This document shows positions 6,510-15,300 of a stretch of DNA of 64,000 bases, one piece after another. The DNA lies in contig OZ219802.1 of assembly GCA_964291655.2 (NCBI GenBank), positions 1,184,001 through 1,248,000 of the forward strand, in the 5' to 3' direction. How positions within the stretch are numbered: position 1 is the first letter of the stretch; every line of letters starts with the position of its first letter. The stretch is from Chloroflexota bacterium (GTDB lineage: Bacteria; Chloroflexota; UBA11872; VXOZ01). The position numbers and the translations under genes were made by a program. Under the pieces are notes generated by a model. That model was not told the DNA's origin and searched no databases. It saw only the letters and a program-made list of their open reading frames with translations.

Positions 6510-6983
6510 GACCGGAGCGGGGGACAAGCCCCCGCGCTACATGGCCGGAGCGACCTCCGGTAGGTGCAGGTTTGCAACCTGCACGCGCCAAATTGGTTGC
6601 CTAGCCCGTCCGATCACGGCCCAATTTGGCAACACACACGCTGACCTGGCGGTAGACAAGCCCCCGCGTTACGCTCTGACTAGCCGCCCTCCGCGCCAAT
6701 CCCAGCCACCGTTCGCGCTTTGGGTTGCGCAAAGCACCTGTCGAAGCATAATCGGCATGTGCCTGATCGACCGGAGCGGGGGACAAGCCCCCGCGCTACA
6801 TGGCCGGAGCGACCTCCGGTAGGTGCAGGTTTGCAACCTGCACGCGGCGCATGGGTAGCTTTGGCCGAGCGATCGCGAACCAATTTGGCAACACACACGC
6901 TGACCTGGCGGGGGATAAGCCCCCGCGCTACGTTCAAACAACAGGGCATCATGTGCTTAGGACTTTGCCGTTCGCGCTGAGCT
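6510..6983. repeat. Mosaic of GTAG-type REP palindromes in two ~259-bp direct units (BIME-like)
   Basis: gcgggggacaagcccccgcgctac x4 (some degenerate), gtaggtgcaggtttgcaacctgcac x2, ccgttcgcgct..tgtcgaagc x2; units start at 6510 and 6769. Confidence 0.9.
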
Positions 6984-7012
6984 TGTCGAAGCGCAAGTGG
7001 CGGCCTCTGGGC

Positions 7013-8530
7013 TCAGGGCCCAGGTTCGTCACTCTCTTCCTCAAAGATGTGCTGGATACTCTCGCCAAAGTCTCGCGCTTCGTCGTCGTACGTTGCAAAG
7101 GGATTCGGCATTTCCAGCACCCGGCCGTGGGCGGCGATGGCTTTCCAGTCCAGCACGTAGGGTATGACTTCCCAGCTATTGTTGGCGGCCACGTCCTCCC
7201 AGTCGTCCACGTAGTCATAGGCGAGAAAGAAATAGCGCCGATCCCACATGAGGTTCTCCAAATTTGACCTCAGGTCCTGCCACGGTATGGCCGTATCGGC
7301 CCCGGCGGCGGCCAGCGCGCGCAACGCCAGACTCCGCCCGTGGGCGCGCGTGTCGATTGGCGCTTGCGTCTCGGCCGTATAGACGGCGTCGCCTTCCGCC
7401 CAATAGAGATTCCGGTGCAGTTTGGCCAGCACGTCGAAGAGACTGATCGACGGGTCAATTTGGTGATAGGAAAGATCGAGTTTTATCAGGTCAGGGTCGG
7501 TCCAGGCCTGGTCGCTGCCGGCATAGCGCTTGATTTGCTCATGCTTCGTAACCCAATCCAAATAGCCATCGAGCCGCGCCGGGTCTCGCTCAAGTTCGTC
7601 CAGCACCCACGCCCAATTTTCCAGAGTCCATTCCGTATCCGCGTCGCGCCCTACAAAGCGCCGCTCGGCCTCACGCAGATAGCCTCGCTGCACCTCAATG
7701 GCGGGGATGTACTCGTCGTTATCGGTTCCCACCGTCCAACGGCCGCCGGTGGTCGCGGCAATGCGGCGGAGGTCGCGCACGGGATCAGCGAGAACAAGCT
7801 GCGGGCTCCAGCCCTGCTCGAGCAACTGAGCAACCAGCGCGGTTGTGCCAATCTTCAGCGCCGTCGTGTACTCCGAACGATTTACGTCGCCGACGATGAC
7901 GTGCAACCGGCGGTACGTGCGCTCCGCCAGTGGCTCGTCCCGCAGATTGATGATGGGCCGGCCGCCAAAGCGCACGCGATGGCTTACATCGATGGTTACG
8001 AATTGCGCCCGCTGGGAGAGGGCAAAAGCAGCCGGGGTATCGTCGCCGCGGGGCAGCAGGCAGCCGGCTCCCGTGTAGATCTGGCGGGTAACGAGAAACG
8101 GGAGCATGCCATCGACAAAGTCGCTATCGTACGGACTCTGCCGGATGCAATAATTCTCATGGTAGCCGAACGTATGGCCGAAATAGTCCGTGTTGTTCTT
8201 GACGAAGTAGGCCTGTGACTGCAGCTCGGCGGCTTTCACGGCTTGGTTGATAATGGTCTCGCCCGCTCGCTCATGGGCGACGATGTCGGTCAGCGTGCGG
8301 CACTCAGCCGTAGCATGTTCCAGGTGACCGAGGTCCAGGTACATACGTCCGCCATTGAACAGAAAGCCGCCGTTTCCCGGCACCTCGCCCCATTCGCGGG
8401 GAGGCGGGTCTATCAGACCGTGTCGACACCCGCGAAAGATAGCATCCTTCACCAGCAGGGCAGCGCGCACAGGCTGCATACTGCCTACACAGCCGTATTC
8501 TATTTCGGTGCCGAACAGAGCATCTTCCAT
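7013..8530 (-). CDS. pafA: Pup ligase (PafA-family) homolog
   Basis: FGTEIEYG, FLFNGGRMYLDLGHLEHATAEC, KNNTD..GYHENY, SQRA, RDEPLA..YRRLHVIVGD and DLSYH motifs; the ATAEC segment is PafA-like rather than Dop-like. Confidence 0.82.
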   Translation of the reverse strand: MEDALFGTEIEYGCVGSMQPVRAALLVKDAIFRGCRHGLIDPPPREWGEVPGNGGFLFNGGRMYLDLGHLEHATAECRTLTDIVAHERAGETIINQAVKAAELQSQAYFVKNNTDYFGHTFGYHENYCIRQSPYDSDFVDGMLPFLVTRQIYTGAGCLLPRGDDTPAAFALSQRAQFVTIDVSHRVRFGGRPIINLRDEPLAERTYRRLHVIVGDVNRSEYTTALKIGTTALVAQLLEQGWSPQLVLADPVRDLRRIAATTGGRWTVGTDNDEYIPAIEVQRGYLREAERRFVGRDADTEWTLENWAWVLDELERDPARLDGYLDWVTKHEQIKRYAGSDQAWTDPDLIKLDLSYHQIDPSISLFDVLAKLHRNLYWAEGDAVYTAETQAPIDTRAHGRSLALRALAAAGADTAIPWQDLRSNLENLMWDRRYFFLAYDYVDDWEDVAANNSWEVIPYVLDWKAIAAHGRVLEMPNPFATYDDEARDFGESIQHIFEEESDEPGP

Positions 8531-8841
8531 GCTGCGTATTCCAATGTGGCGTGGGCTTAGCCGGACGAGTGCGGCGCTAGTTTTCCGCGTGCGATTGTAA
8601 TGGACATTCTGACCTAGCGGACAATGTAAACTCAGGCGACCTACTTTTCACGGGAGTTCATGGAGAAAGGCCGAACGGCTACCGGACCATGCGGAAGTAG
8701 ATACATGTGGCAAGAGCGTTCGATTGTTCGCCGGCCTCTCAATAAAGATTGCCATTAGCGTGGGGTTCACGGGGGGATAATTCGAACTTAACCGAGAGTT
8801 ACTCGACCGGCGCCTCGGATGCTTGGCTTCTCGACCGTTGG

Positions 8842-9066
8842 CTACTCTCCACCAGGCTGCGGTGTGGGGTCGGGCACCTCGCGAATGATGCGCTTGATCT
8901 CTTCGTCAAGATCGTCGGTTTCGGTTTTCTCCGGCGCCTCAGTGGGCGTTTCCGTAGGCGCATCGGCGCCTGCCAAAACAGAACGCGGGCCGCCCCGCAG
9001 CAACCCCTGCCACACTGTAGTGTTGGAGTGTTCTATCTGAAATCCATTCCCAGCATACCACGTCAC
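8842..9066 (-). CDS. Small Pup/UBact-like modifier protein (74 aa) ending in QPGGE
   Basis: AAGGAGG RBS and GTG overlapping the dop stop (GTGA); acidic Pro/Thr-rich sequence; C-terminal GGE-stop; lies between dop and pafA. Confidence 0.8.
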   Translation of the reverse strand: MTWYAGNGFQIEHSNTTVWQGLLRGGPRSVLAGADAPTETPTEAPEKTETDDLDEEIKRIIREVPDPTPQPGGE

Positions 9067-10577
9067 GAGCCGCCTCCTTGTTGCACTGCTCGGCGGAGTT
9101 CTTCGATTGTTTGACACCCATCCACCAATTCTTGCTGTCTCTCCACTGTGGCCCCCCACAGTTCATTCAGAGATAGAGTGAAGGACGCCCCGTTGTGCCC
9201 AAATGTGACGGATCCCCACTCCATTTCCGTAATGTACGGCGCGAACTTGGCGAGGCAAGCTGCGCGCACCGTGGCACGCGTGCCTGCGGGCGCTGTATTC
9301 TCCGCGCGGTCGATATCCGCATCCGTCACAATGCGCTGCATCCGTCCGGCGCGGGTCAGCATGTGGTAGAGGCTCACCGCAGGGTCCACCATATGGTACG
9401 CGAGATCGAGCCGCAGCACCGCCGGGTCATCCCAGTCGACGGCGTCATCACCGCTGACCTGGGCGAAGAGCGCGAGCTTTGCCACCCAGTCCAGACGGTC
9501 GCGCAAGCGCGTGGGGTTCGCATCCAGCAGATCAAGCACGGTTCCCCATTCGTCCAGCACCCAATCGGTCTCGTCGTCGCGATTGTGGTATCGTTGCGCC
9601 GCTTCCCAATAGAGGCGCTGAATGTCAATGGCACGCAGTGTAGAGCCGTCGGCCATTGCAAGAGGCTGCTGCAATTTGAGATCGCGAGAGACCGCTCGCA
9701 GTGCCTGCACAGGGTGTCGGAGTTGCACCCGTGGCGTAAGACCCTCCTCGACCAAATCGAGCATCAAGGCCGTGGCACCGACGCGCAAGGCCGTGGCAAA
9801 CTCGGAGCAATTGGCGTCGCCAATGATAACGTGCAACCGGCGGTACTTCTGAGGATTGGCGTGCGGTTCGTCCCGCGTATTGAAGATCGGGCGTTGTGTG
9901 GTGGTATTTATGCCCACTTCTGTTTCAAAGAAGTCCGCCCGCTGGCTGATTTGAAAACCGCCGGTGCGGCTCGTTGCCGTCTCATACGCCGCTTTCCCCG
10001 CGCCCGCATAGATCTGACGGGTGACGAAAAAGGGGATGCAGGCTGATATCAGATAGTCCAAAGGCACACTACGGCTTACAAGATAATTTTCGTGGCAGCC
10101 GTAACTCCTACCGTGATAGTCTGAGTTATTCTTGACGAGGCGTACGCCATTCTCTTGTCCCACGGCTGTGTTACGCGCTTGTTGGGCACGGAAGACCACA
10201 CGCTCGCCGGCCCTGTCTTGGGCAACAAGATCATGGAGCGAGAGGCACGCATCGGTGCAGTATTCGGGATGATTGTGGTCGTTGTAGAGACGGGCGCCGT
10301 TGGCAAGCACGGTATCGGCGAGGAGGTCCTGCCGGCTGAGATGCCTGCTCTTGGCAGTGTTACCGCGCAGGTCGTGCGGATCTTGGTCGAGGCGTTTAAC
10401 TCGTTTGCCGCGCAGGTCTACGCGCGGGTTTTCCGCCGTGTAGTCCCACCCGCGGAAGCAGTCCGCCAGCGGCGCGCTGCGCACGAGCATGGCCGCCTCG
10501 TAGGCGAAATCCACGGTTTCCGCGGCGTTGGCGCAGAGCATGCCGTACTCGGTCTCGATTCCCACCGGGCGATTCAT
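9063..10577 (-). CDS. dop: Depupylase/deamidase Dop-family (PafA2) homolog
   Basis: GIETEYG, LANGARLYNDHNHPEY (Dop-type DHxHPEY), KNNSD..SYGCHENY, SQRADFFE and RDEPHA..YRRLHVIIGDAN motifs. Confidence 0.88.
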   Translation of the reverse strand: MNRPVGIETEYGMLCANAAETVDFAYEAAMLVRSAPLADCFRGWDYTAENPRVDLRGKRVKRLDQDPHDLRGNTAKSRHLSRQDLLADTVLANGARLYNDHNHPEYCTDACLSLHDLVAQDRAGERVVFRAQQARNTAVGQENGVRLVKNNSDYHGRSYGCHENYLVSRSVPLDYLISACIPFFVTRQIYAGAGKAAYETATSRTGGFQISQRADFFETEVGINTTTQRPIFNTRDEPHANPQKYRRLHVIIGDANCSEFATALRVGATALMLDLVEEGLTPRVQLRHPVQALRAVSRDLKLQQPLAMADGSTLRAIDIQRLYWEAAQRYHNRDDETDWVLDEWGTVLDLLDANPTRLRDRLDWVAKLALFAQVSGDDAVDWDDPAVLRLDLAYHMVDPAVSLYHMLTRAGRMQRIVTDADIDRAENTAPAGTRATVRAACLAKFAPYITEMEWGSVTFGHNGASFTLSLNELWGATVERQQELVDGCQTIEELRRAVQQGGGS

Positions 10578-10725
10578 GGGTCTATCCTGACTTTGCGATT
10601 GTAGAATCTAGTATAGCAAGCCGCAGCGCGATTGGACGCCCCGTCCGCGAGACCGTCGCGTCCGCGGAGTCGCCGCACGTCGAGAGGGATTTGCACAACG
10701 TGCTCAGGATTGAGGCACACAGAAA

Positions 10726-10980
10726 TGTAGCGCGGGGGCTTGTCCCCCGCTGGCCTGGCACTTGGTACCCAAACGGGCTGCTCTTGGCCGGCGGAGTAAC
10801 TCTCGCGCCTCGTCCAGGTTGCATAACTGCACCTACCGGAGATCGCTCCGGCCTTGTAGCGCGGGGGCTTGTCCCCCGCTGGCCTGGCACGTGGTTCCCA
10901 AATGGGCTGCTCTTGGCCGGCGGAGCAACTCGCGCGCCTCGTGCAGGTTGCAAACCTGCACCTACCGGATGTCGCTCTGG
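10726..10980. repeat. Two ~129-bp tandem units of GTAG-type REP mosaic, inverted relative to 6510-6983
   Basis: tgtagcgcgggggcttgtcccccgctggcctggcac at 10726 and 10855, each followed by caggttgca..ctgcacctaccgga. Confidence 0.9.
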
Positions 10981-10999
10981 GCAGACATGCGCCGCCGGC

Positions 11000-11884
11000 T
11001 TACCGCGGATCCTGCGGGCCGATGTCGCCTTCCGCCAGGATGCCGTAGAGTTCCGGCCGGCGGAAACGGGGATGGAAGACTCCCTGCGAACGGCGCTCGG
11101 CCAGGAGTTGCTTATCGAGGTCGGCAGTGACCATCACTTCGTCATCGGCGTCATCCGGGGAGGCCGCCACCAGTTGTCCCAGCGGGCTATAGACCACGAC
11201 CATGGGATTACTGTAGTGCGCGCTCCCGCCGGTTGGCGGCGGCCCGCAGGCGTTGATAGCAACGAGAAAGACCCCGTTATCGATGGCACGTGCGGGAAAA
11301 GTACGGCCGGCGTAGTCTTTCCAGGCGCGGTTGCGGCTGGCGTGGTCCGGCGGCTCGCCCCACTCGCCGACTGACCAGACGTAGGGAGCGAGGATGACCT
11401 CAGCCCCTTGCAACGCCACCATGCGGCTCGACTCCGGCAGCCAGTTGTCGAAGCAGATGTTCACGCCAACTTTGGCAACACCAATGTCGATTACGGGGGG
11501 AGTGCCGCCGCCGCGCCAGTAACCCACCTCCGCCGGTGGGATGTGTATCTTGCGCGACTTGCCAATGTACCCATCAGGACCCACGATCACGTAGGTGTTA
11601 TACACAATGTCGCAGTCGTTTTCGGCAATGCCGGCGGCGAGCATGACGTTGTGCTCCCGCGCCAGGTCTACGAGCGCCTGCGTGGAAGGTCCCGGCACCG
11701 GTTCGGACGCCTCCCAGATTGCCGGTGTGATGGAATAGCCGCTCAGACCAAGTTCCGGAAAGCAGATGAGTTCGGGATTCTCCGCCTTGGCCCGCACGAC
11801 CCACGCGGCGTGATGGTCCAGGTTCTCCCGCGGCGACGCCGGCTTGCTGCACAGCGACACCGCCGAAACGCGAAAGCTCTGCAT
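11000..11884 (-). CDS. Carbon-nitrogen hydrolase (nitrilase/amidase family)
   Basis: Catalytic triad context FPEL, RKIH and ICFD. Confidence 0.9.
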   Translation of the reverse strand: MQSFRVSAVSLCSKPASPRENLDHHAAWVVRAKAENPELICFPELGLSGYSITPAIWEASEPVPGPSTQALVDLAREHNVMLAAGIAENDCDIVYNTYVIVGPDGYIGKSRKIHIPPAEVGYWRGGGTPPVIDIGVAKVGVNICFDNWLPESSRMVALQGAEVILAPYVWSVGEWGEPPDHASRNRAWKDYAGRTFPARAIDNGVFLVAINACGPPPTGGSAHYSNPMVVVYSPLGQLVAASPDDADDEVMVTADLDKQLLAERRSQGVFHPRFRRPELYGILAEGDIGPQDPR

Positions 11885-12301
11885 TCGTCATTCCTCGCTA
11901 GCCGTCGGGCCCTTTTACTTCATCCGTCTTTCCCAGAGAAAGCGCCGGAACCGCTTCAGCACCTAGCATCGCACACCGTCTCGTTACCTGCAATGAAAGG
12001 CTTTTGAGCTAGGGCACACACGTATTTGCACTGACCGCCCTGTGAGGGACGCAGACAACTGATCAATCCGAAAAAGGTACGACTCAATCTCCCCGTGGTC
12101 TTACCATCTCCCTGCCTCATCTGTGGCAGGGAAACAGAGATCTTCCCAGAGCATGTAGTCTACATGTTAAGGGGATAAGACGAGTAGGCCCTCGGCTACA
12201 GCAACCTCAGTGATGCAAGTTGGCCACTGACAAAGCCGATTGTGCGCAGACGTGATCTGCCTTTGAAAGCGGCAAATACCCGAAAACTAGAACGCTCTCG
12301 T

Positions 12302-15300
12302 TCAATCTGTAGGTATCTCTAGTTGGTCGTATTTGTTCCAGCCCCAGCAGAGGGCCGTGCCGTTCTCTCTCAGTCCGCAAGCATGCATTCTGCCGGTAGT
12401 GATGTCCGTGAAGCGCTCGCCTTCCGGCGGTGAAGCCTTGCCATAGGCGTCGTCACCCCAGCAGACGGCAGTGCCGTCCGTTCGCAGGGCGCAGGTGTGG
12501 TCATAGTTGGAGCTTATCGCCGTATAGCGCTGGCCCGTGGGCGGGGATGCTTCCCCGTACCAATTTTGGCCACCCCAGCATACAGCGGTGCCGTCAGTGC
12601 GTAGAGCACATGCATGAGAACTACCGCTGCTGATCACCCTAAAGCGTTCGCTCTCCGGCGGCGATGTCGCACCACTATAGTCGTCGCCCCAGCAAATGGG
12701 CGTACCGTCTTCTCGCAGTGCGCATGTGAACAAACTGCCGCTGCTTATAGACGTGAAGCGCTCTCTTTGAGGCGCCGATGTTTGAACGTAATCATCCCAG
12801 CCCCAGCAAGCGGCAGAACCATCCTCGCGAAGAGCACAAGTGTGGCCACTGCCAGTGCTGATGGCAGTAAAACGCTCGTTCGCAGGTGGCGTTGCCTGTC
12901 CGCCGCTATTGTTGCCCCAACAGATAGGTGTTCCATCCTCACGCAAGGCACAGATGTGCCCACTAGTGCTAATTGCGGTAAAGCGTTCGTTATCAGGTGG
13001 CGCTAAGCCAATTCGACCCCAGCACACGGGTGTTCCGTCCGTGCGGAGCGCACACGTGTAGCCTGAGGTGCTGCTGATCGCCATGAAGCGAGGCGCAGGT
13101 GTGGGCGTTACCGATGCGGACGTAGAAGGCGAAGGCGTTGGGGGTGGAAGCGGAGCGTGATAGGACTCCGGTGAGGTTTGGCCGTAGTCCTCCCATCCCC
13201 AGCAGACGGCGCTGCCGTCCGCACGCAGGCCGCAGGTGTGGGAACTGCCAGCGCTGATGTCCTTAAACTGCTCATCTGCCGGCGCCGAGGATTGTCTTGA
13301 GTGATCATCTCCCCAACATACGGCCGTGCCATCCGGACGAAGCGCGCACGTGTTGCCCGACCCACTGCTGACAGTTGTAAAGCGCTCACCTTCCGGCGGC
13401 GTTGCAGCGTGAACATATCCCCAGCAGACGGGAGAGCCATCATCCCGCAGCGCGCAGGTGTGGCTAACTCCACTGCTAATCGCCGCGAATTGCTCTCCTT
13501 CCGGGGGAGCTGCCTGTTCCTGGCCGTTCTCTCCCCAGCAGACCGGGGTGCTGTCTGCACGGAGTCCGCAGCCGTGCGAAGCGCCCGTGCTCAAGCTAGT
13601 GAGAGTCTCACCCTCTAGGGGACTCTCATCAATGAACTCCCGGCCCCAACAAACCAGGCTTCCGTCCGTCTTGAGGGCGCACGTGTACGAGCGCCCGTAG
13701 CCGGAGCTGACCGCCGTGAAACGGTATTCCTCTGGCGGCGACCGAGGCGGCGAGGGCTCGCCTCCGCCCGACGGCCAGCAATACACCGTGCCGTCCTTAC
13801 GCAGCCCGCAAGGTTCGGCTCCAACGCTGACGGAACTGAACCGCTCGTTGCGTCCTAAGTAGTAACTGGAATCCCAGGGTCCCCAACAGTAAAGAGAACC
13901 GTCTGTACGGAGACCGCAGGCCTGATTGTAGCCGCTGCTGATGGCGGTAAAGCGCTCTTCCGCAGGCGGAGAGGCGTCTATGCCCCAACAAACCGGCGTG
14001 CCGTCCGCGCGCAGCGCGCAAGTGTGCAAGTCCCCGCTGCTGATAGCCACGAAGCGCTCTTCCTCCGGCGGCCGCGCCTGCCCGAAGTTGTCTCGATGGG
14101 GGCTAGCGTCTGCTTGCACGCGAAACCCCCAGCAAACCGGAAAACCATCTTTGCGCAGCGCGCACGTGTACTTTCCAGCACTACTGATGGCGATGAATCG
14201 TTCGTCCTCAGGAGCATCGGCCCGACCATCGTAGTTTTCACCCCAGCAGACGGGAGATCCGTCTTCACGCAGAGCGCACGTGTGGTATTGACCGCTGCTG
14301 ATAGTAACGAACGCCTCACCGAGGGGTGGAGCAATGGCTCCTGGCAAACCCCAACAAAGAGGCTTGCCACCAGCAAGTAACCCACAAACATGGTTGCCAC
14401 CGCTGCTAATTGCCAGGAAGCGCGCGCCTTTTGGTGGCGATGCCTGTCCTGAATGATTTGATCCCCAGCAGATTGCAGTGCCATCTGCTCGCAATCCGCA
14501 GGAATGGCGCTCACCACTGGTGATGGCAACGAAGCGCTCATTCACTGGAGGCGAAGACTCGCCGTACTTGTCGTCATCGCTCCAGCAGACGGGAGAGCCG
14601 TCCTCACGCAGCGCGCAGGTGTGCTTGTCACCGCTGCTGACGGCGACGAAGCTCTCGCCCGCCGGCGGCGCCGCCTGGCCTTCACGATTCGATCCCCAGC
14701 ATAACGCCGTGCCGTCCGGCCGCAGGGCGCACGTATGTAATCTCCCGCTGCTGATGGCTACTAGGCCTTCCGCGGCGAGCTGCGCAAAGACAGGCGTGGG
14801 GGCCGACCTCGCCACGAGCGGCTGCGCGGGTGGCGGCTTGGAGGCATCCATCGGCAGCGATGCCTTGCCGTAACTATCATCTCCCCAGCAATAGATAGTC
14901 CCGTCCGCGCGCAGGGCACAGAAGTGGTTTCCGCCACTGTCGAGCGCCACGAAACCCTCACCTTCCGGCGCTATCGTTGTACTTTCAAACCTACCGCCCC
15001 AGCAGAGTGCCGTCCCGTCCGCCTGCAAACCGCAGGCGCGGAAAAAGCCGACGATTACTGCCGTAAAGCGTCGGTCTTCAGGAGGCGAAAGATCGGCAAG
15101 CAGGTCACGGCCCCAGCAAACGGCTCCGCCGTTTGCGCGTAAGGCGCACGTGTCATTCGCACCGCTGGCTATGGCAGTGAAGCGCTCCTCTGTCGGGGCC
15201 TCGGTCTGGCCATCTTCGCTATTGCCCCAACATGAGGCGCCACCATCTGTCCGCACCGCACAGAAAAAGTTTCCGCCACTGCTGATGGCAATATAGCGCT

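Follow-up and report, generated by a model that had tools for sequence, protein, structure and literature searches.

A small GG[EQ]-ending protein encoded between Dop-like and PafA-like enzymes in one Chloroflexota class: a candidate third family of pupylation-type modifiers

Two modifier families are known for pupylation-type tagging, namely Pup (prokaryotic ubiquitin-like protein), which occurs with Dop and PafA in Actinomycetota, and UBact, found in Armatimonadota and other phyla; to our knowledge biochemical study has so far concerned Pup only. In the window analysed here, a stretch of 64,000 nucleotides from a Chloroflexota genome, a short open reading frame that ends in Gly-Gly-Glu lies between two genes of the Pup-ligase family. 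This raises the question whether the frame encodes a protein modifier and, if so, whether that modifier belongs to Pup, to UBact or to neither. We consider it probable that the product is a modifier comparable to Pup and UBact, small and intrinsically disordered, yet from a separate sequence family, which would be ligated, deamidated and removed, with an outcome that we infer to be regulatory. A full-text literature search returned no report of Dop/PafA, or of a tag resembling Pup, in Chloroflexi. Two comparative studies covered other phyla: in the available portions of their texts, Chloroflexi had 0 occurrences in Iyer, Burroughs and Aravind 2008 (PMC2588565) and no mention in a 2020 Mol Biol Evol study (PMC7947786).

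Structure, conservation and reach of the small gene

The GTG start of the small gene overlaps the TGA stop of the Dop-like gene (Table 1), and its 74-residue frame is the tail of a 105-codon open frame. The preliminary description had preferred the 74-aa form because of the ribosome-binding site and the GTG/TGA overlap, and the residues that it quoted are the exact translation of the gene. Both signals were confirmed, and the start with its GGAGG is kept at all genus-level orthologous loci, with ATG in place of GTG in one of them (L018). The 105-aa form from the open reading frame track was rejected: its start is not conserved, and it is excluded by two loci (L006 and L009) in which the frame is open for a single sense codon 5' of the modifier start. 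Gene callers predict 74-aa proteins on other assemblies. No database name was obtained for the protein from 8 looked-up clusters or 23 first matches.

Table 1. Positions in the window of the candidate modifier gene, the flanking enzyme genes and nearby features
Feature	Position	Strand	Remarks
Repeat copies	6516-6541, 6775-6800, 6802-6931		just downstream of the PafA-like gene
PafA-like gene, 505 aa, putative ligase	7013..8530	-	Pfam Pup_ligase 5.1e-106
Spacer, modifier gene to PafA-like gene	8531-8841		311 bp; unique in the genome
Candidate modifier gene, 74 aa	8842..9066	-	between Dop-like and PafA-like genes; tail VPDPTPQPGGE
GTG start of modifier gene	9066..9064	-	
TGA stop of Dop-like gene	9065..9063	-	
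GGAGG ribosome-binding site	9073..9077	-	6 nt 5' of the modifier GTG start; read from the sequence
Dop-like gene, 504 aa, putative deamidase and tag remover	9063..10577	-	Pfam Pup_ligase 1.3e-153
Tandem repeat within the spacer between Dop-like gene and hydrolase gene	10726-10977		129-nt unit in tandem, 2 copies, 91% alike
Carbon-nitrogen hydrolase gene	11000..11884	-	Pfam CN_hydrolase 3.5e-42; upstream of the Dop-like gene, same strand

The protein is laid out as a variable N-terminal part, a Thr/Pro/Glu-rich linker, an amphipathic helix (DDLDEEIKRIIRE) and a proline-rich tail. In the protein collection we found 22 homologues, most of them exactly 74 aa long, in which residues 7-31 differ freely between members, the start MTWYAG is conserved and the last 43 positions scarcely change. 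Members from other families of the class have 56-99 aa, and their genes have an ATG, GTG or TTG start with a ribosome-binding site just past the Dop stop. The portion shared across the family is the C-terminal part only: a linker rich in Glu, Thr, Ala and Pro leads to a helix that is first acidic and then basic, and this is followed by the invariant C-terminus RI[IV]RE-x-P-x-P-x-PQPGG[E/Q]. The aromatic N-terminus, which had been put forward as characteristic of the modifier, is not a feature of the family because MTWYAG, which the models leave unstructured, is restricted to the genus and does not occur in the other families of the class.

Codon usage in the tail was compared among 75 distinct gene tails, drawn from 121 fetched loci of which some had been fetched twice. 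All 75 tails end in GG[EQ], with a final E in 47 and a final Q in 28, and each of the invariant residues (R, I, R, E, P, P, P, Q, P, G and G) is encoded by 2-4 synonymous codons. Over the last 16 codons, pairwise comparisons yielded 20581 synonymous versus 3387 nonsynonymous differences, an approximately sixfold excess that points to purifying selection at the protein level. The small open reading frame is a real gene that is conserved and under purifying selection.

To what extent the gene is spread over the class was seen with a profile of 28 diverse family members (A5), which was searched in 98 genomes of the window's Chloroflexota class. Exactly one copy was present in 89 of the 98 genomes, and the gene occurred in 58 of the 64 good-quality genomes and in 17 of 20 genera. 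Its place is equally constant: the order dop-like, small open reading frame, pafA-like was found in 15/15 genus loci, and frame, stop, start and ribosome-binding site hold even where the Dop proteins have diverged to ∼47% identity. An earlier suggestion had been to look for small GG[EQ]-ending frames at orthologous dop loci, and such a conserved frame was indeed found, since the tail is carried by 71 of the 80 loci fetched around Dop relatives. Seven further loci encode UBact (six titled as Armatimonadota or Chthonomonad lineages and one titled just 'bacterium'), and the two loci with neither tag are interrupted by a contig end and by a 100-N gap, respectively.

Two broader searches returned the same picture. 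A DNA pattern for the tail matched 85 stretches among 185,579 species genomes, and the best 80 of these 85 carry Chloroflexota, Chloroflexi or Thermoflexus titles, with a single 'Bacterium HR10' as the exception. A profile search of 1.84 billion representative proteins gave 27 matches at E<=0.001, among which neither Pup nor UBact appeared; 22 have the complete tail, three belong to the family but lack the end of the tail through truncation or frameshift, and the remaining two, both long proteins, align weakly and in part. The modifier family is confined to one Chloroflexota class.

Relation to Pup, UBact and their enzymes

The Pup (PF05639 and TIGR03687) and UBact models of Pfam and NCBIfam did not match the 74-aa or the 105-aa form at E<=1. 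At the more permissive E<=10, the Pup model matched none of 23 family members, and a genome-wide search with PF05639 did not match the modifier locus; likewise, the UBact models PF20513 and NF033388 gave no match to the family. As a positive control we used the small open reading frame of G366, a UBact-bearing genome of the same class, which scored 1.8e-22 with PF20513 and 7.9e-22 with NF033388. This genome carries a classical mpa-dop-UBact-prcB-prcA-pafA operon (L052; G366:C2:58000-70000) and two further Pup-ligase paralogues at other loci (L053 and L054). It lacks a PQPGG-type tag, and the two tag types never co-occurred in the genomes searched.

For profile-profile comparison, reference alignments were built for UBact (n=36) and for Pup (n=26, translated from actinobacterial and Nitrospira-titled loci). 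Five loci with Nitrospira or Nitrospirales titles (L225, L245, L250, L276 and L279) encode canonical Pup tails (FVKNYVQKGGE), and no Dop-like gene was detected in the 3.5-8 kb fetched around them. With hhalign, the modifier family reached a probability of 1.1% against Pup over 11 columns, in which the first helix alone was aligned, and of 0.3-0.6% against UBact over 10-12 columns. The yardstick for these values is UBact versus Pup, at 5.5% over 33 columns reaching the C-terminus. All three comparisons align one and the same amphipathic helix without a shift in register; it is represented by DDLDEEIKRI in the modifier family, ELLRRMRRV in UBact and DDLLDEIDDV in Pup.

The resemblance to Pup is considerable. 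The family consists of small proteins (56-99 aa) that are disordered when modelled alone, the gene directly follows dop and precedes pafA, the helix is acidic, amphipathic and of the DDL-DE-I type, the chain ends in GG followed by E or Q with both endings present within the family, and the accompanying enzymes belong to the same family and show the same Dop/PafA duplication. The Pup-like GGE end and acidic amphipathic segment noted beforehand are both present. The difference lies in what follows the helix. In the fetched sequences Pup ends in FV[RK]xYVQKGG[EQ], whereas the modifier family ends in PQPGG[EQ], and the second helix of Pup (NAE-FV--YVQK) is replaced by an invariant proline-rich P-x-P-T-PQP. 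The two-helix C-terminal half of Pup is therefore absent: the small protein has one modelled helix (residues 50-57) and then VPDPTPQP, which cannot form the second helix of Pup because four of its eight residues are proline.

With UBact the small protein shares the slot between dop and pafA, the helix in register (ELLRRMRRV versus EEIKRIIRE) with a proline behind it, and the terminal G[EQ]. It is acidic where UBact is basic, and the basic stretch behind the UBact helix, which ends in YRQR[ST]G[EQ] with R-Y-R-Q-R columns invariant in 36 sequences, differs from PQPGG[EQ]. In addition, the UBact operon of G366 contains mpa, prcB and prcA, and the modifier locus contains none of the three. The Pup and UBact endings given in the preliminary description proved correct on the fetched sequences.

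Both flanking enzymes retain the motifs of the Pup-ligase family, match solved Dop and PafA at 1e-57 to 1e-108 and score 512.6 bits (Dop-like) and 355.7 bits (PafA-like) with PF03136, for which the cut-off is 25. The Dop-like enzyme reached 441.5 bits with the Dop model TIGR03688, under its cut-off of 492.3, and residues 1-499 match the solved Dop 5lrt full-length at 2.7e-108, the Dop-loop region included. For the PafA-like enzyme the PafA model TIGR03686 gave 283.5 bits and TIGR03688 249.6 bits, both under cut-off. Against solved structures this enzyme, from residue 54 onwards, also scored much alike with Dop (5.3e-60) and PafA (1.7e-59), so that its assignment as PafA is drawn from the tree and the gene order.

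A quick tree (51 sequences) fell into a Dop half and a PafA half, separated with a support of 100, and the modifier-linked enzymes made up a single clade on either side (100 and 100), with stem lengths of 0.65 and 0.84 changes per site. The window's PafA-like enzyme grouped with UBact-type PafA within the PafA half (support 100). When 16 actinobacterial Dop sequences were added, the Pup-type, UBact-type and modifier-type Dop clades were separate (100, 97 and 100), the quick tree giving no resolved order among them; both trees were quick searches with SH-aLRT support, and their PafA sequences came from non-actinobacterial sources. The two enzyme genes are the only Pup-ligase genes in the window's genome, and among 401 Chloroflexota genomes the family was detected in 44, of which 43 belong to the window's class and one, with a sub-threshold match, lies elsewhere.

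The best reading of these comparisons is that the small protein represents a third sequence family of C-terminal-Glu modifiers, apart from Pup and UBact. A 'third class of modifier', as proposed at the outset, is a fair description at the level of sequence families because the models for Pup and UBact do not match, the profile probabilities are at or below about 1%, and the enzymes form clades of their own. Common descent with Pup and UBact is plausible from gene position and helix. Such homology is beyond demonstration by sequence, and the role as a tag therefore rests on position, terminal motif and enzymes.

Predicted docking on the PafA-like enzyme

Modelled alone, and with low confidence, the small protein was unstructured except for the helix at residues 50-57 (mean pLDDT 60, pTM 0.14). 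A profile search against solved structures gave no hit for it at E<=10, and a search for look-alikes in the protein atlas gave no usable match. The complex prediction that had been proposed as a check was run with the PafA-like enzyme, using alignments for both chains, and scored 0.76 as compared to 0.00 for the best of three controls. This mark is reached by 58 of 80 solved complexes and by 2 of 110 mismatched pairs. The runs agreed in at least 52% of contacts, with a partner pLDDT of at least 48.

In the complex model, residues 49, 53, 56-57, 60-61 and 63-74 of the small protein contact the enzyme. Specifically, residues 53, 56-57 and 60-61, which have helical spacing, touch enzyme residues 332-371, and the tail is placed against residues 11-21 (the N-terminal GTEIEYG, an ExE strand) and residues 66-69 (the YLDLGH loop with its conserved Asp). 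The GTEIEYG strand and the YLDLGH loop are family motifs of the active-site sheet. Since a PafA-Pup complex has been solved (4bjr), the good score may owe something to memory of the groove, and the model, in which the partner's own fold is uncertain, indicates likeness rather than binding. For the 'different ligase-docking mode' that had been envisaged, the model would suggest a Pup-like route in which an extended tail takes the place of Pup's second helix. Concerning the groove that Pup occupies, the available portion of PMC12053664 gives domain boundaries and no groove residues.

Genome context, alternative explanations and proposed function

No PF00227 match, and hence no 20S proteasome by this measure, was found in the window's genome, which is 97.55% complete, and a full-length pup_AAA match indicative of an Mpa-type ATPase was not found there either. 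The best match to the Mpa model or to the Mpa of G366 covered the AAA domain alone, in a 657-aa frame. Of 61 class genomes, the UBact-bearing G366 is the one with a full-length pup_AAA match. Matches to PF00227 occurred in 10 of the 61 and were weak outside G366; with G366 set aside, 60 class genomes were sampled, and eight of these had weak proteasome-family matches. These weak matches had E values of 1e-4 to 1e-11, lay in frames 91-320 aa long and came from three genomes of the window's genus (G414, G418 and G420) and five of genus g5 (G116, G152, G197, G222 and G238), so that some class members may have a link to a protease.

The absence of linked proteasome genes recalls the proteasome-less Pup systems of Corynebacterium and of the Plesiocystis/Rhodopirellula type, which likewise combine a G[EQ]-ending small protein with the enzymes. 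Corynebacterium keeps a canonical Pup (as fetched) and presumably its ARC ATPase, whereas the window's genome has a different modifier family. The Plesiocystis/Rhodopirellula-type systems were predicted by Iyer et al. (PMC2588565), who in the portion available proposed a regulatory role for the proteasome-less cases. According to the same portion, the ligases of that type have a four-helix membrane insertion and stand alone, while the window encodes two soluble-looking paralogues. Pup is defined there broadly, as proteins of 50-90 residues with a G[EQ] end and adjoining PafA genes, and this definition would fit the small protein described here.

The foremost alternative, although an unlikely one, is a fast-evolved orthologue of UBact or Pup that works identically, degradation included, via FtsH, Clp, Lon or the sporadic proteasome-family genes. 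It would account for the location in the very dop-pafA slot that UBact occupies in G366 and for the helix register shared by the three profiles. Because UBact versus Pup itself reaches just 5.5%, weak scores are compatible with common descent; moreover, AAA proteins of FtsH size are present, as are the proteasome-family matches in 10 of 61 class genomes. However, an Mpa-type ATPase with coiled-coil and OB domains was not found in 60 of the 61 class genomes, G366 being the exception, and the window's genome is without a PF00227 match. The proline-rich segment behind the helix is incompatible with the second helix of Pup, and the enzymes form a separate, long-stemmed clade that is not nested in the UBact-type or the Pup-type enzymes.

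Across 21 class loci no conserved fourth gene was found beside the trio, and sub-clade neighbours occur in at most 8 of the 21. Ten of the 15 genus loci contain the carbon-nitrogen hydrolase gene, and two of the five that lack it lie at contig ends; loci from other class families do not have the gene. The spacer that separates the modifier gene from the PafA-like gene varies from ∼25 to ∼675 bp within the genus, and in other families of the class these genes nearly abut; in the window, no open reading frame, RNA family or terminator accounts for the extra DNA. An Rfam search over the whole window gave no match, and a scan of 6800..12400 for promoters and terminators gave 0 promoter-like sites and 6 terminator-like sites, with 4.5 expected. 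The first 26 nt of the 129-nt unit upstream of the Dop-like gene form a GC-rich hairpin of which the genome has at least 59 occurrences, some of them arrayed at intervals of 96-112 nt. As copies of the repeat lie on both the Dop-like and the PafA-like side (Table 1), the operon is bracketed by it.

We regard it as quite improbable that the small protein, rather than tagging other proteins, is a dedicated peptide substrate, its C-terminal Glu/Gln being amidated, deamidated or ligated to a small amine by the two enzymes of glutamine-synthetase fold, in the way of a metabolic carrier or a ribosomal peptide product. This would suit a protein in which a short C-terminal peptide is invariant and the rest variable, the hydrolase gene upstream in 10 of 15 genus loci, and the fact that no machinery acting on tagged proteins at a later step came to light. 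Outside the genus, however, the hydrolase gene is not a neighbour, and no protease, transporter or tailoring gene is conserved with the trio in 21 loci. Furthermore, Dop and PafA, to which both enzymes are closely related over their full length, act on Glu/Gln carried by proteins, and the alternation of E and Q at the last residue is the pattern of Pup. A chance open frame, or conserved regulatory DNA between the enzyme genes, can be dismissed: GC-rich DNA (here ∼60% GC) does yield many spurious frames, and this one is without a database name, but the sixfold synonymous excess in the tail and the conservation of frame, stop, start and ribosome-binding site to ∼47% Dop identity speak against it.

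We therefore return to the reading of a separate family of Pup/UBact-kind modifiers, for which the following mechanism can be proposed. The PafA-like enzyme would bind the modifier through hydrophobic residues on one face of its only amphipathic helix (L53, I57, I60 and I61), and the proline-rich tail would thread in extended form into the cradle formed by the active-site beta-sheet, where the PafA-like enzyme would use ATP to activate the side-chain carboxylate of the terminal Glu and would ligate it to lysines of target proteins. Forms ending in Gln, as in 28 of the 75 tails, would first be deamidated by the Dop-like enzyme, which would also remove the tag again. The tag would most likely serve as a reversible regulatory mark, or recruit a different machine, rather than act as a proteasome signal; a regulatory outcome seems more likely than a proteasomal one because the genome is without a 20S proteasome and an Mpa-type unfoldase. 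Ligation, deamidation, removal and the non-proteasomal outcome are all projected here from Pup-like chemistry.

A more specific proposal is made tentatively, and with less confidence than the family assignment. Possibly, the three genes form a self-contained tagging system that works without proteasome or Mpa, in which docking through one helix and a rigid polyproline-like tail, the latter standing in for the second helix of Pup, leads to reversible, non-degradative modification of lysines throughout the class.

With a third family, co-diverged clades of Dop and PafA and, as far as the complex model can be trusted, an invariant 16-residue docking tail would be added to what is known of such systems, which would amount to a natural experiment on tag recognition by these ligases. 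It also flags a gene that annotation pipelines have missed or left unnamed. It would show that the tagging module can persist through a class-level radiation without proteasome or Mpa, which argues for a function beyond proteasomal degradation. If the proposal of non-degradative tagging is true, the system would be a bacterial counterpart of regulatory ubiquitination, operating across a class that includes sponge-associated lineages.
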